Source of the DNA: a virus
Lineage: Duplodnaviria > Caudoviricetes
DNA: 64,000 nt
IMG/VR virus record: IMGVR_UViG_3300032167_000083
Location: 24,662 to 88,661 of that record
Strand: one strand, 5' to 3'
Shown: positions 18,363-63,300 of the stretch, one piece after another
How the letters are laid out: each line of letters opens with the position of its first letter
Numbering within the stretch: the stretch's first letter is position 1
Notes under the pieces: generated by a model
Seen by the model: the letters and a program-made list of their open reading frames with translations, nothing else
What the model was told of the DNA's origin: nothing
Databases searched by the model: none
Position numbers and translations under genes: made by a program

Positions 18363-20377
18363 ATGCCCAATAGATTATTTTATACAGCTAAGTTAAAGAG
18401 TAGTTTTATTATTGAGAATCACTGTGATATACATAAAAATTTCTATGAACTACTTATGGCAAATAATATAATTTCATTAGCTGATTCTCAAATGTTGAGA
18501 ACTATTCGACAATTAACAAATCATGAAATTGATTTGGAAAAATTGGAAGATTGGTATCGGGAACGAGATATTATTAAAAGACGAAAAAATTCTAAAGAAA
18601 ACAAAGAACGAATAAGACAATTACAAAATAATATTTATAACATGATGTTTATACCCGAATATATCACTGTGGTGATAGAAAAAGAAAAAGATTATGATTT
18701 ATTCTTTAAAAGAGGATTTAAATTTAATGGTGATAAATATACGAGATTGTCTTGCTCTGCTTCTCAGGCAAGAGTAAATACTGTTGTTTTTATAAAAGAT
18801 GAACTTAAACAACAAATGCAGGATATTCTTAATAATGGACGAAAGATGGATAAGCCGATGGCTCCAAGTAAATTTAATGCTTATTTTGGGTTGTATTCAT
18901 CTGCTACAAAACAAGTAACATATCCAAGATTTTGTATTATTCCAGATTATTGTGAGATGGATAGAGTTAAGGTTGATTTTGTAACTACTACAGATGATTT
19001 CTCTGATGATATTCTTGATGAAAGAACTATTGATGTGGAGTTTAATCGTTTTGATGGAAATGGATTAATTAGTCCTCAAATGGCTGAACAATGGAGTATA
19101 GATATTGGTATTTATAATCCTAATGCAGAAAATGAAGATGATAAAGGATATATTGCTTGTCAATTTTGTATTAGACAAAGTTTTACAAAAGGCATGTTAT
19201 GTACTTTTGATTTTCTTAAATTTTGTAAGGAAAAGAATAATGAAAATTATATTATTAAAGATGTTTATGGACATAATGTTGATTTAAGAGAGATTGATGT
19301 TATTCTTACTGAAGGACAAGTTAAAATGTTCGATCATTTTGGATATGAAAAAGATGGTGAATGGATTCCATCTCAAGAAGTCTTTGAAAATAATATTAAG
19401 AAAAATAATTTATTTTGGGGTGTGACTCGTTTTACACCTGAACAAGATGATAGAGTTCTTATTACCAATTATCAATTTTTACAAACCTTAAAAATGACAG
19501 ATGAAGATATAGAAGAATTATGTCAAGATACTGTTAATTATTTTAAGGGTGTTTGTTCTGGAGATTATAATTATGCGTTATTGTTTATGCTTGGAGATAG
19601 TATGAATGAGAGAAAGATGCAGAATTATATGAAATCCAGTGATAATTATTGGTTAAAAAGTTTAATATGCAATCCTAATTTATTCAATGATAAATATACA
19701 AAGCAAAAGATTAAAGATTGTATTGAAAGAAGAATAGAACAGGCTTGTATAGGAAAAATTTTGGTTGAAGGAAATTTTCAGGTTCTTATTCCAGACAGTT
19801 ATGCTTTTATGGAGTGGTGTTGTTATAGAGATCCAATGAAAGTAAAAGGTTTATTAAAAGCAGGACAATGCTATAGTAAATTTTGGAAAGACAAAGATAA
19901 ACATAAAATTTTATCACAAAGGTCTCCATTAACTCATTTTAGTGAATGTCATTTAATGGATGTAGTTTGGAATGATGATATTGATGAATGGTTTAAATAT
20001 AGTTATACTGGATTTTATACAAATATACATGATGAAAGTGTTATGCTTTGGTCTGGTGCAGATTTTGACTATGATATTTGTGCGAGTACATCTAATCCAG
20101 TAATGATTAGATGTGTTTATAAAAACCAGAAACCAGTAACATATGATGTTCCTAAACCAAAGAAAATGTTATTTACAGAAACAGATTTATATAATTTTGA
20201 TAAAAAAAGTTTTGGTTCTTTAATAGGTCCTCTTACGAATCATGGAACAAGTATTATATCTTTAATTTCATATTATAGAGATAGATATAATAAATATCAT
20301 GATGAACTTGATTTAAGAAAGTTAAGATTATTAGAAGATAGATTAAAGATGGTATGTGCAGGTCAGTCAAGACAGAT
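18363..20377 (+). CDS. yonO: YonO-like single-subunit (two-barrel) RNA polymerase, exon 1
   Basis: SASQAR, K..AY.GL..S, FDGNGLI, QFCIR..FTKG, QRSP, GADFDYD, IGPLTN motifs; SPbeta-like position upstream of HU and terminase. Confidence 0.85.
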
Positions 20378-21698
20378 GAAATATTGTCTGCGTATATGGT
20401 AACATATATGAAAAATTAGTGGTGAACCTATAAATATAGGGTGTATAATTTACGGTAAGGAATCGTAGGAAATGACGATTAGAAATTATGCTAACAGGGG
20501 ATTCTAAGGATTTTTATTAATCTATGAAAATCCTGTGGTAAGCTATTTTTTGGTGGTTGTAAAAATTAAAAAGGAGGTGAAAAAGGGTAAAATGAAAGAA
20601 GGATATAGACCTCATAATTTTATTGATAGAACGAATATGAGATTTGGAAAATTAGTATGTCAAGAATATTTAGGACAAGGAAAATGGAAATGTTTGTGTG
20701 ATTGTGGAAACACACATATTGTAAAAGGTGATGATTTACCTGTGAATAGTAAAAAAAGAGGAGTTAAGTCTTGTGGGTGTGGGCATTTAAGTAAAACTTG
20801 TCCTGATATTAATTATTTTAAAAACATTAATACTTCTGAAAAAGCATACATACTTGGATTATTAGCATCTGATGGAAATATTTATAATTATAATAATAGT
20901 TATTATGCTACGATTAGATTAAAATATACAGATGTAGATATCTTAGAAAAAGTAAAAAAAACTATGAATATAACTTCAAAAATCACATATCAAGAAGAAA
21001 ATGTTGTTTTCCCACAAGGTAATCAAGGTATTGCTAAGATGTGTTGTTTAAGGATTTATGGAAAAGAAATTATTAATGATTTAATTTCGTATGGTTTAGT
21101 TCCAAATAAAACATTACATTTGAAAGTTGATTATAAAAAAATACCAAAAGAATTCGTAAGAGATTATTTAAGAGGATTATGGGATGGAGATGGAACTTTT
21201 GGTTTTTATGAACGACAAAATAATTCTCATACATATGAAGTTCATTATATTGGCTCTTCTGAAATAGTTAATGATATTAAAGATATTATCTTAGAAAATT
21301 TTCCACATTACAAAATTGATACTTGGCATGCTAAAGAATGTAATGAAAATATTTTTAGATTAGGGTTATCTCGTAGAGATGATTGTATAGAATTTTTAAA
21401 TTTTTTATACAAAGATGCTAATATATATTTAGATAGAAAATATCAGAAGTATATTGATTGTATAGATTTAGTTAAATCTATTCCTTTTAAAAAATCACCA
21501 TGTAGAAATTAGAAACTTAATCGACTATCCCAAATGGAGGTGGAATTCCTCAATAGGAGTAGGGGAGAGGTGAAAATCCTTTCTGGGTGAAACCCCCTTA
21601 AATCGAAGTGCCACAATCCTAATTATTTAGGATTAAGATATAGTCAAAACCGACTCATATGAGTGTTAAAGTACTATGAAAATAGCGGTATGTAAATG
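20378..21698 (+). mobile_element. group I self-splicing intron
   Basis: 5' exon ends in U, intron ends in G; core elements GCTAACAGGG..AATCCTGTGGTAAGC, CGACTAT and GATATAGTC (P7); splicing restores Q-I-D-K-T-K-I-G in frame. Confidence 0.88.
20592..21512 (+). CDS. intron-encoded LAGLIDADG homing endonuclease with a Cys-rich N-terminal module
   Basis: AYILGLLASDG and YLRGLWDGDG; N-terminal RFGKLV..WKCLCDCGN..KSCGC. Confidence 0.88.
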   Translation: MKEGYRPHNFIDRTNMRFGKLVCQEYLGQGKWKCLCDCGNTHIVKGDDLPVNSKKRGVKSCGCGHLSKTCPDINYFKNINTSEKAYILGLLASDGNIYNYNNSYYATIRLKYTDVDILEKVKKTMNITSKITYQEENVVFPQGNQGIAKMCCLRIYGKEIINDLISYGLVPNKTLHLKVDYKKIPKEFVRDYLRGLWDGDGTFGFYERQNNSHTYEVHYIGSSEIVNDIKDIILENFPHYKIDTWHAKECNENIFRLGLSRRDDCIEFLNFLYKDANIYLDRKYQKYIDCIDLVKSIPFKKSPCRN

Positions 21699-22572
21699 AG
21701 ATAAAACAAAAATTGGACAAGAAGTAAAAGCAATAGCTAAAATATGGAAAACATTTCGTCCAATAAAAGAGACTGACACAGAACAAGAAAGAGAAGAAAA
21801 AGAGTTTTATAATTCTATTCTTTCAGATAGAAAACCATACTTTTTTAAGTATTTATATAAAGATTGTAAAACAACCTATAATACAGCTTATAAAAGTTTT
21901 GATAAAGAGTCTCGTAGGAGATATGGAATAACATTAAAAGAATTAATGAATATAGAAAATATAACAGAGGAACAAGAGAAATTAATTAATCATTTTATTT
22001 CAGAAACAAGACTTATTATGTCTGACTGTGAAATGAATAGATTATGTAAACATATAGAAAATGCTAATTTTGAAATTAAATTAAATATAAGAGATGATTC
22101 TAAATTTGATTATATGTATTTTTTTGATGAAAATATTGAATGGAAACAAGAAACATATGAGAAAATTTTTGAATTAATGAAAATGTTTAGTTTAAGTAAA
22201 AAATCTAATAAACTTGCTAATTCTTTAAGAGAAAATCAGAAAATAGGAGTCAAATCTGATAACGAAGTAACTAATGGTAAGAAGCTTGAAATAGAAGTAA
22301 TGAGAAACAGATTGCTTGAAGAAGGGACTTCAGATAGTCGTGAGTTATGTAATTATCTTTTGAAGATTTTTTATGAAGATAAGAGAAGTTGGGATAAAGG
22401 ATTGTTGTGGAAATTAGTTGGAGATATTTTATATGAACGTTGTTTTAATAAAAGTAATGGAAATATAAGAGTTCCTGTTTTAGATAATGATGGAGATATT
22501 ATTTTTTATAATGATAAATTTAGTGTAAGAGATGTGAATATAAATAAAGATGAGGAAGTGAACCCATGCTAA
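21699..22572 (+). CDS. yonO: YonO-like RNA polymerase, exon 2 (spliced product 962 aa)
   Basis: Same frame as track ORF 21946..22572; (I)DKTKIG...RKPYFFKYLY. Confidence 0.85.
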
Positions 22573-23585
22573 GAATTTTTGATACTCCAAAATACATCGA
22601 AGATAATATAAAGTATGGGTTCAGAGACCCTAATACTTGGAGATCTGATGCTGCATTATTTGTAAGATGGAAACATGCGTTAGAGCCAGATCTTAAAAAA
22701 AGAGAAGTAAAAGAAATACTTATAAAGAAGTGTAAAAAGAGTGTACCAATGTATGTACATGATTTACAATATAACACAATCAATAGAATAATGGATAAGA
22801 ATTGGAATGAAGAGTTTGTTCCAATAAAAATAAAATCTATACAAATGACCCAAGGAGTTATAGATTGGTTTATTAATCAAAACTTAAAGAAAAATGAATT
22901 AAAGTTTTTATTTGCATTATATGTAGGTTATATTTTAAACAGATGTAGTAAACATGAATCTAAAATTAAATACATATATGATAATGGAACAGATAAGATG
23001 TTTTTAAGAAATAATACATCTATGCCAAAAAATTATTCAACATTTAGTATGTTTAATAGAATGGAAGAATTAGGGTATGTACAGATGTATAGAGAATGTT
23101 CGACATTATTATTTATTGCTGATCCTGAATTAAGTATTTTTTCAGAAATAAAAGATGATAAACCTAAAGAATACATATATAAGTTTTATTGTGGAAGTAG
23201 TAATCCTGAAGATATGAAATACACATTTACTACTGAAGATTTATATGATTTTGGAGATAAATTTTGGAAGATAACACAAGGTTTTATTACTTGCAAAAGA
23301 TGTGGGAAAGTTGTTGAAAAAGTGACTAATCGTAAATATTGTGAAGAATGTGCTAAAATTGAAAACGAACATTTTGTTCCAAAAGATAAACAAATAAAAA
23401 AAGTAATTTGTTGTGATTGTGGAAATGAATTTGAAACTTCTTCCAAAAATAATAAAAAGGAATACAGATGTCCAGATTGTTATAAAGTATATAGAAGAAA
23501 TAAAAAAACAGAAACCATGAGACAATTAAGAATTAAAGAAAAGCCTTTTGTGGTCAGCACTAATTCGGATTTTGAGAAAATGTAA
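22566..23585 (+). CDS. protein with C-terminal Cys4 zinc ribbons, possibly an RNAP-associated factor
   Basis: CKRC..CEEC..CCDC..CPDC; overlaps the RNAP stop codon. Confidence 0.7.
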   Translation: MLRIFDTPKYIEDNIKYGFRDPNTWRSDAALFVRWKHALEPDLKKREVKEILIKKCKKSVPMYVHDLQYNTINRIMDKNWNEEFVPIKIKSIQMTQGVIDWFINQNLKKNELKFLFALYVGYILNRCSKHESKIKYIYDNGTDKMFLRNNTSMPKNYSTFSMFNRMEELGYVQMYRECSTLLFIADPELSIFSEIKDDKPKEYIYKFYCGSSNPEDMKYTFTTEDLYDFGDKFWKITQGFITCKRCGKVVEKVTNRKYCEECAKIENEHFVPKDKQIKKVICCDCGNEFETSSKNNKKEYRCPDCYKVYRRNKKTETMRQLRIKEKPFVVSTNSDFEKM

Positions 23586-23794
23586 AATCACATTTTACCC
23601 AAGGATTATATAGGGAAAATCGATTTATGATTTATTTTTTAGGGAATTTATAAGTTATGAAAGGGAAAGAAAAGTATTTCTTTACTTATGTCGCATATGA
23701 GACATTAAACCATATGCATTGGAGAGGTGTCACTCCTATAAAACACGAAAAATATAATAAAAATTTTTAAAGGTTGAAAAGGAGACGAAAGATT

Positions 23795-24067
23795 ATGAAG
23801 AGAGATGAATTTGTATCTGCAGTAGCAGAAAGAGTTAAGTTTACAAAGAAGGATGTAGCCGAAGTACTTAGAGGTATTGAAGAAGAGGTTGAACATGTGG
23901 TAACAACTGAAGATTCATTTAAATTTAAGTTTGGTACAATTGGTGGTAAGACAAGAGAGGCAAGTGTTTGTAGAAATCCAAGAACAGGTGAAAAGATTGA
24001 TGTTCCTGAGAGACGTGGATATCCATATTTCAAACTTTCACAAACAATTAAGGATGCTTCAAAGTAA
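23795..24067 (+). CDS. hup: HU-family DNA-binding protein
   Basis: MKRDEFVSAVAE...FG...R.A...RNPRTGEKI.VP....P.FK. Confidence 0.92.
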   Translation: MKRDEFVSAVAERVKFTKKDVAEVLRGIEEEVEHVVTTEDSFKFKFGTIGGKTREASVCRNPRTGEKIDVPERRGYPYFKLSQTIKDASK

Positions 24068-24087
24068 TTAATGCATATTGAAAATTA

Positions 24088-24118
24088 GAGTGAGTCAGAG
24101 ATGGCTCACTCATTTTTT
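24088..24118 (+). terminator. intrinsic terminator
   Basis: GAGTGAGTCA-gaga-TGGCTCACTC + T-run. Confidence 0.8.
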
Positions 24119-24190
24119 AAATATATAAAACTCAGTTTTTATTAGGTAAAATGATATTAAAATTTCTTATGTATAAAATAAGAAAAATAG

Positions 24191-24219
24191 TTGATTTTTA
24201 ATAAAAAATATGTTATAAT
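24191..24219 (+). promoter_or_regulatory. sigmaA-like promoter
   Basis: TTGATT-17-TATAAT with TG. Confidence 0.6.
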
Positions 24220-24281
24220 AAGTGTAGTATAAAGTATTTTATACATAACAAATTTTAATAAATAAAAAAAGGATAAAAGGA

Positions 24282-25643
24282 TTGGTGAATAATATAATGA
24301 GTAATGATATGTTAAAAGATAAAAAAGAAAGTTTTTTAGAGTTTGCAAATAGAATTGTGACAGATGAAAACATTAAAGAATATGGTATTTTACATATATT
24401 TAAGAGTTTATTTGAGAATGATAATGTGTCATATGATAATGCTCAAAGACAACTATTAGGTATTAGAAAATTTTTAAATGAATATCGTAAAGATTTAATA
24501 GATAAAGAAATGGAACAATTAGATAAGTCTTTAGATTCAGTGAAAGATGTTGTTCAACAATTAGATATTTCAATTAATGCTGATGGTAGTCAGACGAGTA
24601 ATGCGTTATTACAATTAAGTGAAGAACAAATAAAAACTCCAAAATTGTTATTAGAAGCACATGGATATGATAATGATATGTGGGAATTAGTTAATTCTAA
24701 AAATTCCATGTGGCATCAAAATAGCAATAAAAATGGACTTAAAACATTATATTGCAGTAAAATTACAGTAAAACCACGAACGGAAATTTCTATAGAAAAA
24801 GTTCAGGAAATTTTTGAAAAAATGGATAGAGAATATCAAATTCCATTTTATGATAATGGTTTAGAATTTAGTAATAAAGATGAATGTATGGTTTTGAATT
24901 TCTTTGATGTCCATTTTTCTAAATTAGCTCATTCTTCAGAATCAGGGGAAAATTATGATTATAAAATAGCTAAAAAAAGAATTATGGATAGTATATATGA
25001 ATATAAGAATCGTTTTATAGGAAGGTCCTTTCATAATATTTATTTTGCTATAGGTCAAGATTATTTTAATTCAGAACCCACAGGAAATACTGTTGGAAAT
25101 ACAAAACAAGATAATGATAGTAGATATTCAGTAATGTTTGAGGAAGGTGTTAAAACATTAATTGATGTTATTGAAATTTTGAAAACAATGGGGATAAATA
25201 TAATAGTTCCATTAGTACAGGGAAATCATAGTACATATACTGAATACTACGCTGCACAATATTTAAAAGCATGGTATCGTAATGATACATATGTTACAAT
25301 TTGTGCAAGTCCATTACCAAGAAAATATTATACATTTGGAACGAATCTTTTTGGATTTACGCATAATAGTGAAGAAAAAAATAGAATATATACATTAATG
25401 CAAGTTGAAGCCGCTGAAGAGTGGGGGAAGACAGTAGAACATACTTGGTTTACAGGACATTTACATTGTGAGGATGTCAAAGAAGGTGGAGGTGTCTATA
25501 TTAGACAAGCTCCTACATTATGTGGGACAGATGCTTGGCATAAAAGATCTGGGTATGTTAATCCAATAAAAAGAACACAGGCTTTTGTTTATGATTATGA
25601 TTTAGGATTGGTAGAAAGCCATTATGTTCGAATAATAGAATGA
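24282..25643 (+). CDS. calcineurin-like metallophosphoesterase
   Basis: DVH, GQD, GNH, FTH, GHLH motifs. Confidence 0.85.
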   Translation: MVNNIMSNDMLKDKKESFLEFANRIVTDENIKEYGILHIFKSLFENDNVSYDNAQRQLLGIRKFLNEYRKDLIDKEMEQLDKSLDSVKDVVQQLDISINADGSQTSNALLQLSEEQIKTPKLLLEAHGYDNDMWELVNSKNSMWHQNSNKNGLKTLYCSKITVKPRTEISIEKVQEIFEKMDREYQIPFYDNGLEFSNKDECMVLNFFDVHFSKLAHSSESGENYDYKIAKKRIMDSIYEYKNRFIGRSFHNIYFAIGQDYFNSEPTGNTVGNTKQDNDSRYSVMFEEGVKTLIDVIEILKTMGINIIVPLVQGNHSTYTEYYAAQYLKAWYRNDTYVTICASPLPRKYYTFGTNLFGFTHNSEEKNRIYTLMQVEAAEEWGKTVEHTWFTGHLHCEDVKEGGGVYIRQAPTLCGTDAWHKRSGYVNPIKRTQAFVYDYDLGLVESHYVRIIE

Positions 25644-25644
25644 T

Positions 25645-25672
25645 AAAAGATGAGATTTCTCATCTTTTTCTT
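25645..25672 (+). terminator. intrinsic terminator
   Basis: AAAAGATGAG-attt-CTCATCTTTT + T-run. Confidence 0.65.
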
Positions 25673-25699
25673 TTTGTATAAAAAATAAGATAGAAAGGG

Positions 25700-26031
25700 A
25701 TGAGAATTGTGACAATATTAGAAAAAATATATTATATTCTCCAGAAAATATATTATGTGATTCGTATGATATAAAAATAGAAAAAGCAGATATTTTAAAA
25801 ATTCAAATATCAGGAGAAGGCTCTTGTGATATAAAAATTTATGGAAAGTTAAGTTCTCAGGGGACAGATGAGAAAATATGTGTAGTAAATGATGCAGATT
25901 ACAGTATAACGAATGAAATTACAAAATCAGGAATTTATACAATATCTTGTGAATGTTATTATTCGATAAAAATAGAAGTTATAAGTACAGATAATAATAT
26001 GTCTTGTCTTATAGTAAAGGGGGCATATTAA
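25700..26031 (+). pseudogene. frameshifted ~110-aa gene (break at A6 run 25722-25727)
   Basis: RBS and ATG/GTG start in one frame; ~100 open codons in the -1 frame ending in TAATG coupled to the next gene. Confidence 0.55.
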
Positions 26032-26372
26032 TGGTTGATTTTGTAGCAAGAGCATTAGCTCAACAAGCATTATCTGGGTCTGGAGAGTCTGGTAATTATG
26101 ATGATGTAAAATTAGAATTTGATGATAATAATAATTTGGTTGTCACTATAAATGGTAAAACTTTAAAATTTGCTTCAATTGAAGTAATAGACGAACCATA
26201 CTTGACAATAGATAACAATGGCACATATTTATCGATTGACAATAATAATACAAATTTAACTATTGAGGGAACTAAACAAGAAAATAAATCATATTTAACC
26301 ACAGATAATAATAATACATATTTAAGAACAGATAATGATAATACATATTTAATAGTTGAAGAAAATATATAA
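26031..26372 (+). CDS. hypothetical protein with YL(T/S)xDNNxT repeats
   Basis: Start MVDFVAR coupled via TAATG; internal ~9-aa repeats. Confidence 0.7.
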   Translation: MVDFVARALAQQALSGSGESGNYDDVKLEFDDNNNLVVTINGKTLKFASIEVIDEPYLTIDNNGTYLSIDNNNTNLTIEGTKQENKSYLTTDNNNTYLRTDNDNTYLIVEENI

Positions 26373-26389
26373 TTTTAGTAGGTGGTAAA

Positions 26390-26659
26390 ATGGCTAAAAA
26401 GAAAAAAGAAAAACAAAAGGGATTATTTAGTAAGTGTATTGTTGTGTTTTGTGTTATTGAAATGATGTTAATGCAAGCATGGGGAATGTGGATTGCTGAC
26501 AGCGATACATACAGTACTGATAGTTTAATAGTTGCTAATCACGCTGTTTTTGGAGGAGAATTATTAATGCTTTGTTTAAAAAGGCTATTAACAAAAGATG
26601 ACCCTAATAAAAATACTCAAGAAGAAGTTAAGAAAAATGATGAGATTATATATGGATGA
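26390..26659 (+). CDS. small membrane protein (lysis cassette?)
   Basis: Two hydrophobic segments; adjacent to the holin. Confidence 0.65.
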   Translation: MAKKKKEKQKGLFSKCIVVFCVIEMMLMQAWGMWIADSDTYSTDSLIVANHAVFGGELLMLCLKRLLTKDDPNKNTQEEVKKNDEIIYG

Positions 26660-26684
26660 TTTATAATAGAAAGGGTGAATTTTT

Positions 26685-27050
26685 ATGAATATAAATAAGG
26701 AAAAGATTATTGATGCAATAGTTGTGTTAGCTGTCTTAGTAAATACATTTTTGACAATGTTGGGGAAAAATCCAATTCCATATTCTGAAGAGGAAATATA
26801 TGTAGGGATTAGTTCAGTTGCTTCAGTTTTATCAACTCTCTACATATGGTGGAAGAATAATAAAGCACAAAATCAAGTAAAAGAGATTTCTGATGAAAAT
26901 AAACAGCTTTCATCAATAATAGCAAAGGATAAACAAATGATTGTAGAACAGTCTGAACAAATTGAAAAACTTGAACAATACGTTGAAAAATCTGACCTTC
27001 AAATTAAAAACCTTGAAAATAAAATTGTAGTTTTAGCGAAAGGCGAATAA
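26685..27050 (+). CDS. SPP1-family holin
   Basis: LVN..LTMLGKNPIP..EE.....WWKNN signature. Confidence 0.85.
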   Translation: MNINKEKIIDAIVVLAVLVNTFLTMLGKNPIPYSEEEIYVGISSVASVLSTLYIWWKNNKAQNQVKEISDENKQLSSIIAKDKQMIVEQSEQIEKLEQYVEKSDLQIKNLENKIVVLAKGE

Positions 27051-27053
27051 TCT

Positions 27054-30616: not shown

Positions 30617-30625
30617 GGTGTTATT

Positions 30626-30991: not shown

Positions 30992-30996
30992 AATAA

Positions 30997-48122: not shown

Positions 48123-48277
48123 AAAGGAGAATTAAAATATATTATAGATAATAGAGGTAAGAAAAAAGTTTATTATAAAACAAAGGATGATACAAAATGA
48201 ATATAATTAATAGTTTATTTGAATTAATTTTTAAGCGAATTAAAGTACATATATAAAAATTAAAAGAGGGGGACGTG

Positions 48278-48420
48278 AACAAATGGATAAAAAGAGAATA
48301 CATGATTTGGAGCTTTTATCAGATTTGTCGGAAATTACAGAGTCTGATTATTTAATTATAGATGATGAAAATGAAACAACTTCAAAGAAAATATCTGCTT
48401 TGATGTTAAAAGATGCATTA
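48278..48420 (+). repeat. direct repeat (shared 5' gene module), copy A
   Basis: Near-identical to 51671..51813 (MDKKRIHDLELLSDLSEITE...). Confidence 0.85.
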
Positions 48421-49317
48421 ACAAAACCTATTATTTCTCCTGAAGTTGCTCAAATTGGACAAACAATCGTTGTTAAAGAAATCGACACTAAGGGAAAACC
48501 TATAGTTTGGGAGGCTATAAATTTACCTGATAATAATATAAACTATATAGAAACAGACCCAACTGTTCCTGAATGGGCAAAGCAACCCTATAAGCCTGAA
48601 TACACAGCAGAGGAGGTCGGAGCATTGCCTGATGATACTGAGATACCGAGCCTCGAGGGGTTAGCAACGGAAAGATATGTTAACGATAAAATTTCAGAAA
48701 TAAAGATACCTGAAATAGATTTGAGCGGATATTCAACAGAGAAATATGTCGATGATGCTGTTGCTGACAAAATTACAATACCTACAAGTGCCGAAATCGG
48801 ACAAACCATTGTAGTATCTGAAGTTGATGAAAATGGAAAGCCAACAAAATGGGAGAGTGTGGATTTATCTAAGAATGACAATACAGAGTGGAAGTTATTG
48901 AAAGCGATTGAATTATCAGAGGATACGGCATCAATTTACTTTGATATTGATGACGAAGGAAACAGTTTTGAATGCAAAGAAATATTTTTCCGTGGTCGCA
49001 CCACGGCTGCAGACGGAACAACCACAACTTTAAATATTAAGTTTAACACTCAAAATGCAGGAGACCCGTTTTTCCACGGTAATAGTATTGTTAAAAATGA
49101 TGGTTCGGATTATGCTATTTACGCACAAATTTTAGGTGAAAAGGTTAGTTTTCTCCACGGAACATCGAATGCAGGTGTAACTAATGTAAACACTTTGATG
49201 ACATATGGACGAAATCATACAAAAATCACAATCGAAAAAATAACCTCCGTAGTTCTTGCTACAGGTTCTGGTGGAGGTTTTGCATCTGGTAGTACATTTT
49301 ATGTATATGGGAGGTAG
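48283..49317 (+). CDS. tail fibre/appendage-like protein
   Basis: ETDPTVPEWAK..KP.YTA.EVGALP, LATE.YV, internal repeat IGQTIVV..GKP..WE. Confidence 0.65.
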   Translation: MDKKRIHDLELLSDLSEITESDYLIIDDENETTSKKISALMLKDALTKPIISPEVAQIGQTIVVKEIDTKGKPIVWEAINLPDNNINYIETDPTVPEWAKQPYKPEYTAEEVGALPDDTEIPSLEGLATERYVNDKISEIKIPEIDLSGYSTEKYVDDAVADKITIPTSAEIGQTIVVSEVDENGKPTKWESVDLSKNDNTEWKLLKAIELSEDTASIYFDIDDEGNSFECKEIFFRGRTTAADGTTTTLNIKFNTQNAGDPFFHGNSIVKNDGSDYAIYAQILGEKVSFLHGTSNAGVTNVNTLMTYGRNHTKITIEKITSVVLATGSGGGFASGSTFYVYGR

Positions 49318-49322
49318 TTGTT

Positions 49323-51628: not shown

Positions 51629-51670
51629 TTTCTTATAAAAATAATATTTTATTTGAGAAAAGGAGTGTTA

Positions 51671-51813
51671 AATAAATGGATAAAAAGAGAATACATGATT
51701 TGGAGCTTTTATCGGATTTATCTGAAATTACAGAAACAGATTTTTTAATCATTGATGATGAAAATGAAACAAGTTCAAAAAAAATACCTGTATTGATGTT
51801 AAAAGATATATTA
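51671..51813 (+). repeat. direct repeat (shared 5' gene module), copy B
   Basis: Near-identical to 48278..48420. Confidence 0.85.
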
Positions 51814-51900
51814 ACAGAAGGTGTTGAATCATCAGTTAAAGAATATGTTGATACAAGTATACAAGCTGCCATTTTTGATAGTTGGGAGGCGAGTGTATAA
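51676..51900 (+). CDS. short protein made of the shared N-terminal module
   Basis: 74 aa, AAGGAG RBS. Confidence 0.65.
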   Translation: MDKKRIHDLELLSDLSEITETDFLIIDDENETSSKKIPVLMLKDILTEGVESSVKEYVDTSIQAAIFDSWEASV

Positions 51901-52664
51901 TGAGTGTACAACAGGAAAATTTTACAGCCATTGCAAACAAAATAAGAGAAAAAACTGGTCAAATAGAACTTATAAAACCAAATGAATTTGTAAATAAAAT
52001 TGATGATGTTTATTCTGCAGGTAAAAAATCTGAATATGATACTTTTTGGGATGAGTACCAAAATAATGGTGAGAGAACTGATTATACTCAGGCTTTTGCT
52101 AGAGATGGATGGACTGATACAACTTTTAATCCAAAATATAAAATAACCCCAACAATATTATATTATACTTTTGCAAATAGTAAAATTGCTGATGCTTATG
52201 ATATTTTTAGAGAAAAATTGGATACATCACAGTGTACAGATGTACGTGGGGCTTTTAGAAATGCAAAATTTTCAACATTGCCAAGCCTGAACTTTTGTAA
52301 TGTTAATACCGAATTAAGAGACGTGTTTTATGGCAATCCTGATTTATATTCTATAGATGAAATCAAATGTCCCGATCTAATACTTAGTTTTACAAATGCT
52401 TTTGTTGGTTGTACTAAATTAAAAGAAATTCGATTTACTGGAATATTAGGTAAAACTTTAGACTTTAGGGATTGTCCGTTATCTGTAGATAGTATGAAAA
52501 ATATAATTTCTCATCTATTGAGTTATCGTATGGAATCTGATGCATTTACTCAATCTTTGATATTTTCAAGTGATTGTTGGGCATTGTTAAATGAGAGTGA
52601 TCCTATTGATGGATATGAGTCATGGCAAGAGTATATACATTATGCTTATGCGTGGAATGTTTAA
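51900..52664 (+). CDS. BspA/DUF285-like repeat surface or fibre protein (putative)
   Basis: AIANKIREKTG N-terminus; LDTSQCT..AF / AF.GCTKL repeats; TAATG coupling. Confidence 0.55.
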   Translation: MSVQQENFTAIANKIREKTGQIELIKPNEFVNKIDDVYSAGKKSEYDTFWDEYQNNGERTDYTQAFARDGWTDTTFNPKYKITPTILYYTFANSKIADAYDIFREKLDTSQCTDVRGAFRNAKFSTLPSLNFCNVNTELRDVFYGNPDLYSIDEIKCPDLILSFTNAFVGCTKLKEIRFTGILGKTLDFRDCPLSVDSMKNIISHLLSYRMESDAFTQSLIFSSDCWALLNESDPIDGYESWQEYIHYAYAWNV

Positions 52665-52681
52665 AAAGGAGAGAATAAAAT

Positions 52682-52984: not shown

Positions 52985-53055
52985 TTAAAAATATAATAAA
53001 AAGTAAATACAAGAAAATATTATAAAATAAAAAAAGTTTTTAAGGAGAAAAGATT

Positions 53056-53667: not shown

Positions 53668-53687
53668 GCCGATATTATTTAAAATAT

Positions 53688-53737
53688 TTGGTGATGAGAC
53701 GATATACGTTTTTGTATATCGTCTTTTTTTTCACCAA
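53688..53737 (+). terminator. intrinsic terminator
   Basis: AGACGATATAC..GTATATCGTCT + T-run. Confidence 0.7.
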
Positions 53738-53777
53738 AAGAAAATTGGAAAATTTATAGAAAGGATGATGGTAGATT

Positions 53778-54284: not shown

Positions 54285-54326
54285 ATATTAAAATTGAGAT
54301 TTTATTAGAAAGGAATGTGAATATAT

Positions 54327-57300
54327 ATGGCTAAAAATAAAAATCAAAGAATAGATTTTGGATGGGAAAATAATTTTGGTGTAAAAACATCAGAAGATAT
54401 AAAAGATTTACAAGAAGTTCTTCAATCATTAAATGTTGCGAAAGAAGAATACGATCAATATTCATTAAGTAAGATTAAAGATGCTTCACAAGTTGATAAA
54501 CTATATACACATATATTAACAAAAATGAATAAAGATGGAGAAATTGAGAAAAAAATAGGACTAGAAATAAAAAGAAAAAATGATCAAATTCAAAATATTC
54601 AAAAAAAAACAATGGAAGTTAGAAAAGTTATTAATGATGTAACTGATGGGTTAATTCAAGATAAAGAGATAATATCTCGAAACTTTTTAGATAATCAAGG
54701 AAAAGTAGTTGATGAAAAGTTTTTTACTACTAAAGGTCTTTCTATTAGAAGTAATAAAAATGAAGCAGATCCTCTTAAAGTGTTAGAAGAAAAGAAGAGA
54801 ATTTTAGAAAATTCTTTACATGAAAGATATAAGTATAGTGCTTCAAGGGGAACAGTAGGTGTAGAGGAACAAATAGAATATTTTGAAGGATTTGATGAAC
54901 TTTATCAAGATCAGTATGATGAATGGGGTAAAACTATTGATTATATTGATACTGTAATTCAAAAGATAAATTCAAGTAATAGGTCTGATGAAAAAAAGAA
55001 TAAAGAGATTAAGAGATGGAGAGATATACAAGATCGTGCGAGAAAAACATATCAAAAATCTGCACATAAAAATAATGGAACACTTTCTTCTGTGGCTTTA
55101 AATTGGGCAGATATTAAGGATGGGAGTGCTAAAATTTCTGATTTTGATCCATATTATAATTTACAAACAGCAGTTGAGACTATGACCGAAGAATTAAATG
55201 AAAAATATAGTACATTGAAGGGACAAATTATAGCAGATTCTAAAAAAGATTATTCTGATAAAATTAAGAAATTTGCTAATGGAAGATTTACATTAGGTAA
55301 AAAATCAACAAAAGTTGAAAAAAAACTTTCAAAAGATACTCATTTAGAACATATACAAAAAACACAGAATTTAGATGCTGATGCACTTAAAGAACTTGAT
55401 CATATATTTGAAAAAGGAGTTAGTGTTATTGGTAGAGCCAAAGAATATTATGATGCTAAATATAAGGATACAGAAACTCCTGAAATAGATTTAGATGTAG
55501 CTCGAAAAATAAGAACTGCTTTTGAAAATGTGGAAAAACCAATTAAAGAAGTAGAAACTCGAAAAAACACAAGATATAGTGGACAAGGAGTTTCTATATC
55601 AAATAGAATGAAAGAATTAATGAATTCTACTGGTGTAAAAACTGTAATGGATTTGCCAAAAAAATTGGCTTATTTTGATTTTGAAACAATTGGAGAAGAT
55701 AAGTTTGCAACACAGTTTTCAATAAGATATGGAGACCAAAGTATTACTAAATTTTTTAAATTAACTGAAGAAAAGGCAAAATATATAAATGATACTTTAG
55801 GCAAATTGCAATCCTCTAAAGATGGGGATGATAATTTATCTAGGCAGGAAAAAATGGATTTATATCAAATGGCAGATTATTCAATGGTAACTTCTCCAGA
55901 TAAAACAAAAAGGATTGTTGCAAAGCATGGAGATTATGATTTATCAAAAGCAATTCCAAAACATATGATTCAACGTATAAAAGATGGTATTGAAATAATG
56001 ACAAAAGGAGAAGGTATCGTTAATCTTTTAGAATACAATGATACAGAATTAGGAGTTAGAAATTTCTTAAATACTACTTTAAAATCTGTTGTAGAAGAAG
56101 GGTATGCTACAACTGGTCATAATATTAGAACTTTTGATAATTCAGTATTTAAAAATATTGGAGTTGATGAAAAGTTATATTCTAATTTTATAGATAGTTT
56201 TGAAGTTGTAAAAGAATTTTATCAACATGGTTCACAACGTCAAGGAAAAGATGGCAAAATAAAAACATTAACAGGACATACATTATCAGATCTTGCTGAC
56301 TTCTTTGAAATAGATATGGAAAAAGAATTAAAAAAACAAGAGAATAAAAATATTACACAGCATACAGCAGATTATGATACATTGTTGCAAAAAAAAATCT
56401 TCGAAAAGATTATAAAACATTCTAATCGAATTAAGAATTTAAATACAGATAAAATCACACAAGACAAAAAGGCATTTATTAGACAAGGTAATGTGATGGT
56501 TGCTGCTCGTAATATTATTCGTCAAGGCTCTAATTCTTTTAAAATTGATGAAGATGGTAATGTAGACACAAGTTCTTATGGAAAATTACTTATGGAAAGA
56601 GGAGGAGCTTACGAATTTTTAGGAGCAAATAATGATGTTATCGATAAGATTGTGAGTTCTTGGAGGAATGTAGACACAGGAGAATTAGTTTATACTGAAC
56701 ATTCAGATATGGGAGATTTAGCAAATTTTATTTCTCGTGTTGGAGATGGTATTGCATTTAATGTTAATGATTTAGAGCAAAAAAAGAAAAAAAAAGATCG
56801 AAATAATATAGAAAATCCAATTAATTTAAAAGATCGTGCTTTTTCTCGTATTTTTAATGGAAAGCATAATAAATTAAATGGATATCAATTATTAGAATCT
56901 TTTTATGAACAATTCAATAGTGAACAAACTAATGCAACTTCTGGTCAAAAACAATTGTTTAAAAATTTAGATAAAGATAAAGATTTTAAAGATGTTATAT
57001 TTAAACTATATGAACAGTTGAATGATGAAAATCTTACAAACAAAGAAAAAGATTTTATTTTAAAAAAAGCAGGTTCAGAATTTATTACTTATGGAGAAGC
57101 TTTTACAGAAGCAACTATAGGACATCTTGCAAAGACAAAAGCAGAAGATACTGTTTCTTCTTATAGAGCAGCATATGCAGAAATTTTACAAGAATGGAGA
57201 AATTATCTACCAGAAAATGTATATCAGACAGCATTAGAAACGTTAAAAAGTTGGAATAAAATGTCTGATTCTGAAATTGCTGAAAAGAATGGATTTCATT

Positions 57301-60300
57301 GGCTAAATAAAATGATTCTTGATAATTTAAATCAAGAAGAATTTATGAAGCATAATAATAAATTAGGTTTTTTAAATATACATAGAAATCAATTAAAGAA
57401 CGGAAAAGGAAAAGAAAAAAAAACTATAGATTCTTTTGTAAATGATTATGTTGATAATTTTAAAAAAGTATTTCCAAAAAATAAAGGAAAAACAATGGCT
57501 GTTGATAGTTTGTTAGAAAATGGTAAGAAGTTATGGGGGCAAGAATTTGAAGATGCTCTTACAGGAAAATTTAAAAAAACTAGATTAGATAAAACAAAGA
57601 AGTTTGGAAGAAATTCGAAAGAATGGGAAGAGTATGAGAGAGCATATGATGAAGCTACAAACAATCAAAGAGGGATAAAAGGTAATTCTGCAAGTATTTT
57701 AGGGCAATTAAAAAAATTAGAGAACTTTTTTATGTCTTCTGAGAGTGGTAGAGGATATGGCATGACATTATTACCTTCTATGGATGGTAAGTCAATTAGA
57801 CTTGGATTATACTCTAATAGAAAAATGGAAGATTATATGACAGATGGAGAGTTAGATATTGAAAAGATGGCTAGTGCTGTAATTCCATTGGATTTTGGAG
57901 ATGGAAATATAAAAAAAGGATATCAAGATATTGTTAATGTTTTTTCTGCAAGAAATGATGGAACAAGAGAAATGTTAACAACTCTTAATGAAGATGCATT
58001 TTATTCATTAATTCAAAAAATAATGATGCCTGAAAGTTATATTTTGAGAAGTTTAGATGATGATAAAATAGGATTGGCTTCTTGGGCTATGAGAAAAGCC
58101 ATTAATGATAAATTGGTAGCTCCATCCGCAGGAACATATCAAAGAGGTAGTGATTTTGTAGATTCTTACGATGCTACTGGAGCAACTAAAGAACAATTGT
58201 TTGCAAAAAGAACAAAAATGGGTTTAAATGGATTAGTGACAAGAGCTTTAAAATCAATTGGATTTAAGTCAGACTCAGATATAGAAAAATATAGACAAGA
58301 TGCAATACAATATATGTACCTTTTGAATGCAGGATTAACAAAAGATGCAGAAGGTAGTTTGGATGTTTTTTTAAGAGATGCTTTAAAATTACCTGAAAAT
58401 AAAAATGTAGGAATAGATGCAATAAAAAAAAGATTTGAAACACATGTAGGTAGATTAGTAAACCCACATCTTTTTAATTTTAATTTATCTGCTGATAAAG
58501 AAGAAGCAGCACAAGAAGGTCTTGCAAGTATGTTAAGTGCAAGAGATTTAGACCCATCTGGTATTTTACATCCAGAAGCTAATAGAGGTATAGATCAATC
58601 AACTAATAATTTGTTATTAAAAATAATGAAAGGATTTTATTCTTATGATTTTAAAAATAAAACAAATGAAAATGTATTAAAGAAATATGGTGTGTATAAA
58701 AATTCATTTACTACAGATATTGGAAATATAAATTCTGACATTATTAATTACGATGCATTAACTCATGGTAAATTTGAAACAATACAAATGGAAGAAGATG
58801 GGTTAAGAATAGTTTATGAAGAGGGTGCTAAGAGATTACAAGAGGATATAGATAATGAATTAAAAAAAACAACACCAGATGTAGAAAAAGTTAATGAGTG
58901 GAAAAAACAAATTTCACATTATCAAACAGCTTTAAAAAATGGTTTATATCCATCTGTTAAAAATGATAGTTTGATAATTGATAAAGAATTTGCAGAAATG
59001 TTAAGTTTAGAATCTAGATCACATAGTTTAAAATTTAAAGATGCAGAAGAGGCTATTAGAGTTTTAAGAAAATTTAATTTTGATGATGGTGATAAAGATT
59101 TACAAGATCCTATAAGAAGCTTAGGTGTTGGAGAAATTTTAAAGATAAAAGATGGAGAAGATAGAAGATTTAAAAATGTTTCTTTTTCACATAATTGGAA
59201 AGAAATGGAACTTAATTCTAACCATATGTTTGATAAATTAGAAAAAAGAGCAGATGGTACATATTTAATGACTTATACAGAAAATAAAAAATTTGATACA
59301 GGAACAAAAGCATTGTTTAATAATCGTGGTACATTTATGTACTTAGATCATTATCTTGCTAATATTGCTAGAGAATTGTTTGGTGGAGGATTTCAAACAG
59401 ACGAGAATGGTAATATATTAAGAGACACAGAAGGTAATAAATTATTAAAAAGTTCAGCTTCTTTATTTATTCCAAAGCGTAAGAAATCAAAGATGAGAGA
59501 ACAAGATTTGATGTTATATGAAGCAGGAGACCTTTATAATGTATTACAATATGCTAAACGTTATGCAGAAGAAAAAGGTATTATAGATCCTAATGATGAA
59601 ACAAGTGTAGAAAATTTTAAAAATGTTTTATCTAATGTTTTATCAAAGAATACTAATCTTATGAAAAATTGGATACAGCCTATAAGAAAAGGTACAGATA
59701 TTCTTTTTAATTCAGGAAGTTATGAACAAGATGGTGTAGCTATAGATAATTTCGGAAACCATTTATATGGGAATGATATTTATGATGAAAATGGAAAGAT
59801 ATATCAAGGAGATGATGCTACTGTTGAAAATAAATGGAGATTAATGTGGCAAAAGGGATATACATTAAATGGTATTAGAGACGATAGAACAAGATTAGAA
59901 GAAGGTTTAGATGAGATGTTCCATAAAGAGTATGGTCTAGCTAAAAATTCTTTTAAAAATAGAATACCTGAAAATTCTATACTGATGAATTTTAGACCTG
60001 CAAATGATCCTCATTATTTTAAGCCAACTGGTACTGTTAGTCAAGAAGATGCAGAAAAATATAGTAGATACAAAGTTTCAAAAAATGCGAGAGATTCTTT
60101 AAAAAGAAAAGTTGGTTTATATTCTCAATATTTAACTCCTGAAGAAAAAACAGCACTTGAGGAATTTTATGAACCTTTTACTTCAGAAAAATCAGTTGAT
60201 GAAGTAGCTGAAAAACTTCAAGCCGAATATGGAGGTATGTTAACTCGTAATTTAGATTTTATGAGTGGTAATGGGAATAAAATTGTTGAAGAATTTGCAA

Positions 60301-63300
60301 ATGGTGAAAATGTAATACGATTAGTGAGAAGAGAAGATTCTAATACGGATGTATCAGGTAATGAAATAGATTTAGCTGATAAGAAAATCAATGGTTTGAA
60401 TAAACCAACAAGAATAAATGGTGCATTTTCTGAATATGATTGGAATACTACTCCTGTAGGTTCTATATTGAAAAAAGCAAGAGAAGAAGGAAAGACTGGA
60501 CCTGTTAGAGTAGTTCTTTCTTTAAACACAAAAGAACATCCATCAAAATTTGATGCAGTTAGTGGAGAAACTTTTAAAGATTTACAACATTTAGTTCTTG
60601 TTGTTGATGATCCAGAAATGCTTAGTAATGGTAGTGTAAGTCCTTCTCAAATGGATGATTTAGCGAATAAAGTAATTAGGGCATATTATGATGGTTCTAA
60701 AGATTTAGGAAAGATTTATGAAAATTATCTAAAAGAAGCTTTTTCACAGGTTAAAAATAAAAATAGTGAATTATGGAAAAGAAATACATCAAAAAGACTT
60801 GGTAATGCTTCTGCTATGAAACTTACAGGTATGAACTATGAGGCATTTATAGGTAAAAAAGGTCTTGATTTATCTACATTAGGAAATACTATATTTTTAA
60901 ATAAAAAACATATGAAGGAAATGATGACTACAAGAGATAGATCAGAAAATCCTGAAATTTTAGCAAGAAATATTGAAAATCTTCAATTCATCTATGAAGA
61001 AATGTTTAAATCAGAAATTGCTAATCAAACTGTTGATACTTTTGATACATTAAAAAATCAAAAAATGGATAGGAAAGGTAACGTAAAACTTAATGAGTTA
61101 GAAGATTTATTGATAAAAAGAATAACTGATGCTGCAGATGTTGATAAAGGTGGAACAAAATCTTTGTCTGGATTATTGTCAAGATATCCTTACACAAGTG
61201 GGTTAGATATATCTCATTCAAGAGTTCAATTAACATCAGATGAAAGTGCTGTTGCTTATGGACACGCTGCAATAAACCCAGGACTTGCAAGAATTTTCAA
61301 TGGTGACTTTGACGGAGATACTTCTTATATTCATTTACCTTGGTTAAGTCAAGAAATTGATATAGATAAAATGAAAAAAGCATGGAGTTCTTACAATACT
61401 ATGTTACAACAAGATGATTTAGTTTCACAAATGGTAGGACAAGAAGTATTGAATGAATATTTATCAGAAAAGGGACAATCAAAAGAAGATCCTCAAGCTG
61501 TTGAAGATGCGTGGAAATTTATAGCCAAAGAACAGACAACAAATAGATTAAACGATAAAATTGCTGCAATAATTGCAAAGTTTAACTTTGGTAAAGTAGG
61601 TGGATTTTCTAATATTGCATCAGGTGTTAGAGAAGCTTTAAGAATAGATAAAAGAGATGAAATGTCGGATGGAATATCTTTAGCAGAAAAACAAGATGCA
61701 TTGACAGTTAGAGCATTTTTTGAAATGATTGAACAAGATGCTATTAGTGCAAAACATGTAAAAAAACGTTTGACTGATAAACATAAAGGTGATGATGGAG
61801 CTGCGACACTATTTCATGAACTCAGTAATTTTTATACTTTATTAACTAAAGGACATATGCTTGGAGAAGAAGATACTGTTGCATTAAAAGGTGATGCTTG
61901 GAGAAAAAAAATTGCCAGTTATGGACAAAATATTGGTATTTTTGGTTCTGATGATGACTTTTTAGATGGTAGACAGGGACAAATTGCTATGGCTAGAATG
62001 TGGGCATCTGCAAATCCAAATACTAAAGAAGGATTAGCTTTTCGTCAAAAATTGATTAATGATGGAGTAGTTAAATTTGATGATATTACAGATGAGAATA
62101 ATGTAAAAAAAGATAAATTCGATCATGTTGGCAAGATTTCAAAAGAATCATTTATTGATGCATTAAGTAGAGTAGACCCAAATAACGATCTTATTTTTAG
62201 ACATTATAAGGCACGTAATTCTATGGGAAAAATAAGTGAAGATTATGCTTTCGATAATTTTGTAAACAGAGGAATGAAAAATAGGGGTATTGGAAAACCA
62301 AATCCAGATGAAGAAGATGGTGGTACTGATACTTCTGGATATGATCAAAGAACTGAAGCTATTAATCGAGAGGCAAAAGCTGAAGCTGATAAGATTAGAA
62401 TATCTAAAGGATTAGAGGCTCAATGGAACAATGAAAGTAAAGCTGCAGGAAATGTTAAAGGTATTATAGCAAGAGATGGTGCATTAAGATCTTTGAGAGC
62501 AAGTTTAGAAGATATTTCTGCATTAGGAAAAGTTACGGCAGAATTCAAGGGATTGCAACATCTGTATAGAGCACATGATGGAAAAAATGAAATTACCAGT
62601 GATCAGTCAAATGCTGCGACTGTAACTCAAATAGCAGATGCTTTATTTGGTGAAAGTTATGAAAAAAATAGTGAATTTTCTGCTATGTATAATGCAATGA
62701 ATCATTTGATTGTAGAGGGTAGTATTCCTGATACATTTAAGCGTTATGATGAAAATGGTAAAGAAATGAGTTTTAAATATAATGAAGATGAACATGATTT
62801 GTTTGAAAAATTTGCTAATTTCACTAATATGAATGTTAAAGATAAAAATAATATGAAAAATCTCATGACATCTACATTAGTTGGAAATATGACACATGAA
62901 ATGATGCAAGTTTTAAGAGAAAATAAAATTTCTGATATTGGAATCTTAACAGACGAAAAAGTAGCTGAAAAAGCAGGAATGAAAAATGTGTATGAGAAAT
63001 GGCAGAAAAAATACACCGATGTTTATAAGCTACAAGCTGATAGATTAGGAGTTGAATTAAGTTCACAACCTGCAGAATATTTAACAAGATTATCTGATTT
63101 AGGATTTGCTGATGGAGGACTTGCTGAAAAATCATTAGCAATACAATTTGGAAAAGAAGGAAACGAACATTATTTGTTTGGTACTTTAGATGCTTATGTT
63201 AATGATTTATTGATTGATTATAAAACTACTGGACATATTGATAAAAGAAAAATGGGATATCAATTAACTGCATTAAGAGAATTAATGGCAGCACATGGGC

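Follow-up and report, generated by a model that had tools for sequence, protein, structure and literature searches.

The closest described counterpart of the locus analysed here is found in Thermus phage P23-45, whose 5,002-amino-acid (aa) tape measure protein, gp96, contains an active RNA polymerase (RNAP) that is present in virions and transcribes the pre-early genes. These genes include that of a second, non-virion RNAP, gp64, and transcription of the middle and late genes falls to the host RNAP (Chaban et al. 2024, PMC10770324). According to the same paper, gp96 clusters with gp64 as ancient duplicates and could be recognised only through its DFDGD motif until its structure was solved, and many viral genomes encode two RNAPs (PMC10770324, its Supplementary Data 4). 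In a second described system, YonO transcribes the SPbeta late operon (Forrest et al. 2017, PMC5467207). Here we analysed a 64,000-nucleotide (nt) stretch of viral DNA (the window), bases 24662–88661 of the linear 88,661-bp IMG/VR virus record IMGVR_UViG_3300032167_000083 (estimated completeness 58%), which encodes two RNAP-like enzymes: a YonO-like protein whose gene is interrupted, and a module within a giant protein. The source is an uncultivated tailed phage of the animal gut; metagenome runs with near-identical DNA were faecal, gut and bovine-gut samples from 13 studies, and the best-matching run may be from the sample of origin.

We cautiously favour a reading in which this phage combines an intron-split, YonO-type non-virion RNAP with a beta-prime-like RNAP that is embedded in a tape measure protein and probably ejected, a parallel to P23-45 drawn from unrelated enzyme families. 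The features that carry this reading are the following (ORF, open reading frame).

18363–20377, plus strand: exon 1 of the YonO-like RNAP gene, 671 codons and the first 2 nt of an Ile codon (PF05183, phrog_8308, tblastn)
20378–21698, plus strand: 1,321-nt insert, most likely a group I intron (partial RF00028 match, boundaries, relatives)
20535–21512, plus strand: LAGLIDADG homing-endonuclease ORF within the insert (Pfam LAGLIDADG_3, E = 1.6e-9; phrog_4645 'endonuclease', E = 3e-47)
21699–22572, plus strand: exon 2 of the YonO-like RNAP gene, with the Ile codon's final base, then 290 codons and a stop (tblastn, phrog_8308)
54327–63998, plus strand: giant ORF, putative tape-measure-type protein with an RNAP-like module (>3,224 aa; collinear with the giant protein of the relative G002)
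60576–62006, plus strand: conserved RNAP-like module, aa ~2084–2560 (phmmer, alignments A1/A2, PDB profile search, AlphaFold/Foldseek)

A beta-prime-type barrel in a giant protein

The giant protein (P0001) is open for 3,224 codons, runs off the contig end and carries NGDFDGD (aa 2327–2331, nt 61305–61319). Like gp96, it is a giant protein with DFDGD that standard domain searches miss, and it is putatively of the tape-measure type. No part of it matched a Pfam or PHROG model, neither half gave a tblastn match in 50,697 phage records, and a word-indexed search with residues 1900–2800 found no match among proteins of 1,773–5,642 aa; within the phage collection, the SPbeta-like phages likewise held no match to the module.

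Relatives came from broader searches. With aa 1701–2900 as query against 1.84 billion representative sequences, phmmer returned nine proteins (P0002–P0010) at E ≤ 0.001, four of them at E ≤ 1e-10, and every match that reached the motif kept N-[AG]-D-x-D-G-D. Pattern scans added 15 IMG/VR, 2 genome-bin and 29 metagenome loci; because the two loci on genome contigs both lie in metagenome-assembled bins, no host can be named. The initial annotation had raised the prospect that the giant protein's RNAP domain might be degenerate in relatives. Such decay was not seen: among 46 related loci, gathered with tblastn and with the EQD[AS]IS[AS]K motif that lies downstream, a procedure that made no use of the aspartates, all 46 kept DxDGD (45 by pattern, and L037 as DSDGD). 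In alignment A2, comprising 13 sequences that are 18–30% identical to the window's copy, the invariant residues are R437, P439, D478, D480, G481, D482, G576, S579, R586, E620, Q621, D622, I624, S625, K627 and R632, and they include those of the invariant signatures of the module, namely R-x-P, DxDGD and the downstream EQDxISxK helix (EQDAISxK in the window).

When the A2 profile was compared with the PDB (E ≤ 10), all six distinct sequences matched were RNAP largest subunits and all aligned on the catalytic barrel. The best was vaccinia rpo147 (E = 5e-6), followed by phiKZ gp55 (E = 0.098), two AR9 beta-prime chains (E = 0.13–0.14) and two archaeal Rpo1N chains (E = 1.8); one relative also had a weak LEF-9 match, under the cut-off (E = 6.6e-4). 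An AlphaFold2 model of aa 1850–2700, built from 13 sequences, pointed the same way. At E ≤ 0.001, Foldseek matched this model in the PDB at least 257 times; each of the 50 best matches was a bacterial or AR9 RNAP beta-prime chain, aligned over ~340–400 columns and, in a few cases, up to ~810. Against BFVD there were 13 matches at E ≤ 0.001. A piece of an unnamed giant protein ranked first (E = 3.6e-13, 946 columns), ahead of a 'minor tail protein' of Siphoviridae sp. (E = 2.2e-11), after which came phage and giant-virus RNAP subunits. Within the sequence itself, 'NKNSELWKRNTSKRLGNASAMKL...NTIFLNKKHMKEMM' resembles the beta-prime stretch 'GKxGRFRxNLLGKRVDYSGRSVI...GLPxxMAxxLF', which makes up the first half of the same barrel. 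These profile and model comparisons support a beta-prime-type catalytic double-psi beta-barrel (DPBB) in the giant module, whose RNAP activity is a prediction.

Several results weigh against so direct an interpretation. The model is of moderate quality, with a mean predicted local distance difference test score (pLDDT) of 64.1 (70–94 in the core) and a predicted template modelling score of 0.54, and the Foldseek template modelling scores are low (0.12–0.19 of the query), with only ~350 columns aligning. A second, beta-like barrel (DPBB-B) was sought in aa 1915–2160: a model built from 17 sequences (pLDDT 70.2) matched nothing in the PDB at E ≤ 0.001 (top match an ATPase gamma subunit, E = 0.19), and the corresponding profile (A4) found no relevant match in the PDB. 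A search of the ESM Atlas with aa 1850–2160 was uninformative (best score 0.87, no family). The absence of Pfam and PHROG matches from all parts of the protein counts on the same side, as does the position of the module, which sits behind 1,100–2,300 residues of no known function and is not N-terminal as in gp96, where DFDGD is at residue 779. The domain had initially been described as a two-barrel RNAP; the part of that description that stands is a beta-prime-type barrel with NGDFDGD, and, the second barrel not having been found, 'two-barrel' applies to the giant protein by analogy.

An alternative that draws on these same results is that the module is active but no promoter-specific transcriptase, making RNA to pull or anchor the DNA, for instance, or acting on another nucleic-acid substrate, or that it is a one-barrel relic with a different role. 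The undetected second barrel, the burial of the module deep within a protein of >3,000 aa that has long lineage-specific regions, and the precedent of gp96, itself atypical, flat and without a clamp (PMC10770324), all speak for it. Yet conservation of DxDGD, R-x-P and the helix downstream is strict among sequences only 18–30% identical to the window's copy, and the ~350 columns that align to beta-prime exceed the barrel alone. Pieces of single-chain phage RNAPs also align over >600 columns in BFVD, though with a probability of only 0.77–0.89, and in the model a strand-rich region comes after a helix of 38 residues, an order compatible with the published succession of duplex-binding helix and DPBB-B (PMC10770324). 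On balance we regard this alternative as unlikely and retain a transcribing, beta-prime-like enzyme as the preferred reading of the module.

Upstream of the module, the N-terminal 1,900 residues (window 54327–60000) have relatives only in G001/G002 (aa 444–1557) and, in part, L055, and match no family. A DEDD-type exonuclease (aa ~455–690) and, outside this region, a PD-(D/E)xK-like site (aa ~2960) had been suspected from motif-level resemblance; neither was supported by phmmer against the PDB or by Pfam at E ≤ 1.

TAG is apparently a sense codon in many relatives, where the giant ORFs contain 5–39 in-frame TAGs and are open only on TAG readthrough (L005–L010, L012, L013, L016, L017 and many of L038–L065). 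The YonO-like genes L019–L021 likewise contain 1–3 in-frame TAGs. The window and G002 use the standard code, so the code change varies within the phage clade.

Fusion to a tape measure in relatives

In four relatives, the tape-measure core PF10145 and the RNAP-like module lie in one ORF.

Giant protein of G002: 7,175 aa; DxDGD at 2032; PF10145 at 3416–3634, E = 2.2e-25
L015: 3,703 aa; DxDGD at 1149; PF10145 at 2174–2391, E = 4e-32
L017: 4,328 aa with TAG read through; DxDGD at 1488; PF10145 at ~2401–2605, E = 1.9e-22
P0003: fragment of 2,607 aa; DxDGD at ~1553; PF10145 at the C-terminal end, E = 4.8e-9

G002 is the closest relative of the window, and the YonO-like proteins of the two are 75% identical. 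Across aa 444–1557 and 1883–2657, the giant protein of G002 and the window's copy are collinear, though at only 25–28% identity, and the YonO-like gene lies 37.1 kb from the giant gene in G002, compared with 36.0 kb in the window. By homology and synteny with G002, the window's giant protein is most likely a tape-measure fusion too, and it may be of similar size. Against this, the window's own giant ORF ends before any tape-measure domain, and what lies just upstream of it (an NlpC/P60-SH3 hydrolase gene, an integrase-like gene and a resolvase gene) is no classical tail module. Delivery of the giant RNAP in the virion, as initially proposed, gains support from PF10145 in the same ORF of relatives and, by analogy, from P23-45, and the protein is a predicted virion component.

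At G002:C1:83324–104848 (L033/L034), a single, exceptionally large ORF of 7,175 codons unites the RNAP-like module with the tape-measure core and, at the C-terminus, a VgrG3-like domain (E = 1.2e-33).

A YonO-type polymerase gene interrupted by an insert

The other polymerase is a single-chain enzyme of the YonO/RNA-dependent RNA polymerase (RdRP) family, as judged from its sequence matches, and its polymerase activity is predicted. The ORF at 18363–20402 (679 aa) matches the Pfam RdRP family PF05183 over residues 110–602 (E = 1.6e-12; 47.3 bits, where the cut-off is 23.8); in a six-frame search (37.3 bits) it was the single such gene on the contig. The metal-binding motif DFDYD (aa 567–571, nt 20061–20075) is spelt with identical letters in Bacillus phage BUCT082, a Spbetavirus and the best of 40 phage records found by tblastn (42.5% identity). 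Matches to Enterocloster phages and Clostridium phage c-st followed at ~31%, and the annotated yonO genes of SPbeta-like phages are ~25–26% identical to the window's ORF. Shared with SPbeta YonO and BUCT082 are the Pfam and PHROG family, the DxDxD motif, a similar length (962 against 924 aa) and an HU-like gene downstream; unlike SPbeta yonO, the window gene is interrupted by a probable intron that carries an endonuclease. A profile of the YonO family found only weak matches to eukaryotic RdRPs in the PDB (E = 0.2–1), and a single-sequence search there gave chance matches only.

The interruption was placed through intron-less homologues. The PF05183 match ends at profile position 472 of 582, beyond which the ORF continues into a tail of unrelated residues, and the rest of the protein lies in another frame at 21700–22572. 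The uninterrupted 924-aa BUCT082 protein aligns by tblastn to both exons, with exon 2 corresponding to its residues 647–924. The orthologue in G002 (L018; 966 aa, 75% identical, uninterrupted) has exactly one codon, ATA, between the residues that match exon 1 (1–671) and the first residue of exon 2. In the window this Ile codon is split as AT | A, so that the alignments with BUCT082 and L018 place the splice junction to the base and give a spliced length of 671 + 1 + 290 = 962 aa. Only once 20378–21698 is removed is an intact full-length protein obtained, collinear with BUCT082 and L018, and along phrog_8308 (847 positions) exon 1 matches positions 62–625 (E = 9.6e-119) and exon 2 positions 647–820 (E = 4.5e-12). 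The 962-aa YonO-like RNAP of the initial annotation is thus recovered at its proposed length, with the exact junction and the PF05183 match in agreement.

The insert lies within the conserved SRQ-I-DKxKIG motif. Its boundaries read CAGAT|G...ATG|AGATAAA, so that the exon ends in U, the last insert base is G and the exons join precisely in frame. The endonuclease ORF is listed from GTG 20535, and ATG 20592, preceded by GGAGGTG, is the more likely start. When the 3' part of the insert was searched alone, Rfam RF00028 gave a 5'-truncated match at 21505–21667 (19.5 bits, E = 0.0042; gathering score 50) that takes in the AAGAUAUAGUC element, and a J8/7-P7-like AAGATATAGTC lies near 21632–21645. The site is empty in L018, L019, L020, L021 and BUCT082, and L022 and L023 carry a different insert of ~1.2 kb at the identical CAGAT|A position; such presence and absence among relatives is the pattern that homing elements produce.

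On these grounds the insert is most likely a mobile group I intron with a LAGLIDADG homing endonuclease. It resembles the endonuclease-bearing group I introns of essential phage genes by striking the most conserved motif of the host gene, by its free-standing LAGLIDADG ORF, by its U/G boundaries and by its polymorphism among relatives. It differs from typical ones in being recognised in its 3' half only and under the Rfam gathering threshold, and this, with the lack of any RF00028 match in searches of the whole window, the whole insert or its 5' half, counts against the assignment; a missing whole-insert match is to some extent expected, because an ORF of ~1 kb lies inside. On the same side, no contig joins the junction 20377/21699 in two metatranscriptome-library runs. 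Contigs from such libraries cover the exons at 90–96% identity and leave 20478–21605 almost uncovered, and the DNA runs X1 and X7 contain the insert; as metatranscriptome libraries can contain DNA, the coverage gaps prove nothing. Splicing in vivo is therefore put forward as a prediction. An intein was rejected on account of the stops after 20400 and the frame change between the exons.

The YonO-like gene looks like a hotspot for intervening sequences. Further interruptions occur in L024 (G014) and L026 (G013): one is a 311-nt gap between residues 569 and 570, inside DFDYD, and the other, of ~960 nt, falls just before that motif. An intron in the catalytic region of a YonO-type enzyme, present in some relatives only, would add a further case of homing elements targeting conserved sites.

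Downstream of the YonO-like gene (22566–24067) is a 339-aa protein with a Cys-rich C-terminus and a weak HNH-like match (E = 2.7e-4), and two genes downstream is an HU-like DNA-binding protein (phrog_379, E = 1e-18). The order YonO, gene, HU-like is common to the window and BUCT082. For the SPbeta-like architecture proposed in the initial annotation, this shared order is the part that holds; the single weak match of the portal gene, to an unclassified faecal phage, and the lack of any phage match for the giant protein do not fit it.

The two polymerases are paired across relatives

A YonO-like gene was found in nine of 15 viral records that hold the giant-module family, among them all six that are ≥90% complete; the six records without one are 12–84% complete. 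The survey of related genomes proposed with the initial annotation thus yields a conserved pairing. When the alignments of the two families were compared by hhalign, the probability was 0.24% over 14 columns, and at the sequence level the two polymerases are not detectably related. This agrees with the original view of two different RNAP-like enzymes on one contig, one of the YonO/RdRP family and the other a beta-prime-type module.

The pairing invites comparison with P23-45, which, like the window, has a second, separately encoded single-chain RNAP and a long-tailed (siphovirus-type) gene set. In P23-45 the two enzymes cluster together, whereas the window's second polymerase belongs to the YonO/RdRP family, with no profile-level relationship to the giant module. 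Activity and virion location have been demonstrated for gp96, whereas the window's giant protein is known from sequence alone. A direct comparison of the giant module with gp96 tells against common descent: hhalign aligned 29 columns at the motif with a probability of 0.8% (E = 0.07). As far as sequence goes, the giant module is analogous to gp96 or, at most, very distantly related to it, and does not belong to the gp96 family.

Polymerases inside very large virion-delivered proteins are also found in crAss-like phages (phi14:2 gp66) and N4-like phages. Among the BFVD matches of the giant module are two weak ones (E ~2e-3, probability 0.77–0.89), to a Podoviridae sp. 'RNA dependent RNA polymerase' and to part of a protein from the uncultured phage cr118_1. 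Both groups are podoviruses in which the polymerase is not fused to a tape measure, unlike in the window's relatives. The N4 enzyme is T7-like and not barrel-based.

In the full-text literature we found no other tape-measure-fused RNAP and no pairing of one with a YonO-like enzyme, and published supplementary lists may include the family; within the literature searched, the two-polymerase layout is so far described only in P23-45. The general idea of a tape-measure-fused virion RNAP with a second, non-virion RNAP is hence already known from that phage. What appears to be new is a rare, distinct family of the fused enzyme, with the module placed far from the protein's ends, its conserved co-occurrence with a YonO-type polymerase that has a separate origin, and its presence in low-G+C gut phages.

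Proposed division of transcription

In the preferred reading of a YonO-type enzyme paired with a tape-measure-embedded, beta-prime-like RNAP, splicing of a group I intron would yield the intact 962-aa YonO-like protein, which, by analogy with SPbeta YonO, would serve as the non-virion polymerase for a later gene class. The giant protein would be both RNAP and, as in full-length relatives, tail tape measure. By analogy with gp96, it would be ejected along with the DNA and would read the first phage genes without relying on the host's polymerase. More tentatively, and as a possibility that we would not yet press, the fusion of transcriptase and tape measure arose independently at least twice: here from an unnamed RNAP family whose barrel is closer in sequence to beta-prime of multisubunit RNAPs than to YonO/QDE-1, which is obligately paired with a YonO-type enzyme of separate origin, and in which the N-terminal 1,100–2,300 residues would be further ejected cargo.

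Which genes each polymerase reads is a matter of prediction throughout. The initial annotation envisaged three tiers, in which the virion RNAP would read a minus-strand block at 1–9 kb, host sigmaA would serve the middle genes, among them the one for the YonO-like RNAP, and the structural genes would fall to the YonO-like enzyme. The promoter-like sites that bear on this scheme, all of them consensus matches only, are as follows.

16780–16808, plus strand: sigma-70-like consensus TTGACA-17 nt-TATACT with TG extension, 11/12, heading the unit that leads to the YonO-like gene
17577–17605, plus strand: second sigma-70-like site with TG extension, 11/12 consensus
2624–2652, minus strand: perfect sigma-70-like consensus TTGACA-17-TATAAT, 32 nt upstream of ORF 2592–2128
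24179–24222: related 44-nt promoter copy (family D13; site at 24190)

Further minus-strand sigma-70-like sites lie at 16343 and 15528, and a divergent promoter region between the minus- and plus-strand blocks is plausible. The two TG-extended sites ahead of the YonO-like unit, with a similar one at 24190, are consistent with the middle tier, and the structural genes lie downstream of the YonO-like gene on the same strand, as would suit an enzyme comparable to SPbeta YonO, which transcribes late structural and lysis genes (PMC5467207). Against the scheme, sigma-70-like sites occur in 1–19000 at shuffle frequency (146 compared with 138.1 ± 11.7 in shuffles); with such a count in DNA of 27% G+C, the presence or absence of a site is uninformative. 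Of the sigmaA promoter region initially placed upstream of the YonO-like gene, then, the consensus sites at 16780 and 17577 are there, and no excess of sites over shuffles accompanies them. The 1–9 kb block had been thought to contain no clear minus-strand sigmaA promoter; the perfect site at 2652–2624 contradicts this and falls within the very block assigned to the virion RNAP. Nor is 1–9 kb set apart, the minus-strand block of small ORFs extending ~19 kb further upstream of the window, and only three of 12 minus-strand ORFs tested had a PHROG match, one of them with a named function. The order in P23-45 differs as well: the non-virion RNAP is there a product of the virion RNAP, and late genes are read by the host enzyme (PMC10770324). 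We consider the three-tier programme as specified improbable. Terminator-like sites, for their part, were above shuffles (17 compared with 4.0 ± 2.3), and no sigma-factor region 2 was found on the contig.

One relative bears on whether the window's giant protein is a tape measure at all. In L011 (124 kb, complete, with terminal repeats), a gap of 344 nt (13774–14118) separates the RNAP-bearing ORF (2,210 aa) from the PF10145 ORF (1,371 aa) under table 11. An intron or a frameshift may account for the gap, or the split may be genuine; that the second ORF starts within the PF10145 profile, at position 54, suggests a single interrupted gene. That this phage's giant protein is no tape measure and no virion component, the relatives' fusion not applying to it, could appeal to the split in L011 and to the window's ORF stopping at the contig end before any PF10145 domain, but is very unlikely given the mid-profile start in L011 and the collinear 7,175-aa ORF, with PF10145 and a VgrG3-like domain, at the same gene spacing in the closest relative.

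If the giant module is an active, ejected polymerase, as we favour, the strategy of P23-45 would be no oddity of a thermophile but recurrent in long-tailed phages, and low-G+C gut phages would bring their own transcriptase, built from unrelated polymerase families. The alignments define a rare RNAP-like family that is without a Pfam or PHROG model, a candidate addition for annotation pipelines, and tie it to some phage proteins of very large size, up to the 7,175 aa of G002. The two enzymes would also offer a natural pair for studying how a phage gene programme is divided between two single-chain polymerases.

Gene layout and repeats

The window is 27% G+C (22–34% along its length), and the sign of its GC skew switches near 16 kb, between the minus-strand block (1–16.3 kb) and the plus-strand block (16.8 kb to the end). 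No tRNA was found in the window. Named genes on the plus strand, each from a PHROG match and given by start position, are as follows.

24282, plus strand: repair exonuclease
28289, plus strand: terminase-like ATPase
30997, plus strand: portal
45415, plus strand: head protease
46522, plus strand: resolvase
47067, plus strand: integrase-like gene
50468, plus strand: NlpC/P60-SH3 hydrolase

At 26222–26352, a ~36-nt motif occurs three times within a small ORF and encodes the peptide repeat YL-T/S-x-DNNNT-x-L; because the repeat is coding, a reading as iterons was rejected. A longer repeat of 176 nt (82% identity) is present at 48251–48426 and 51644–51819 and encodes the same ~47-aa N-terminal domain (MDKKRIHDLELLSDLSEITE...), which starts both ORF 48283–49317 and a short ORF from 51676 that stops after 74 codons, before ORF 51882–52664. 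This domain may serve as an anchor common to two tail or receptor-binding proteins, of which one is perhaps frameshifted.

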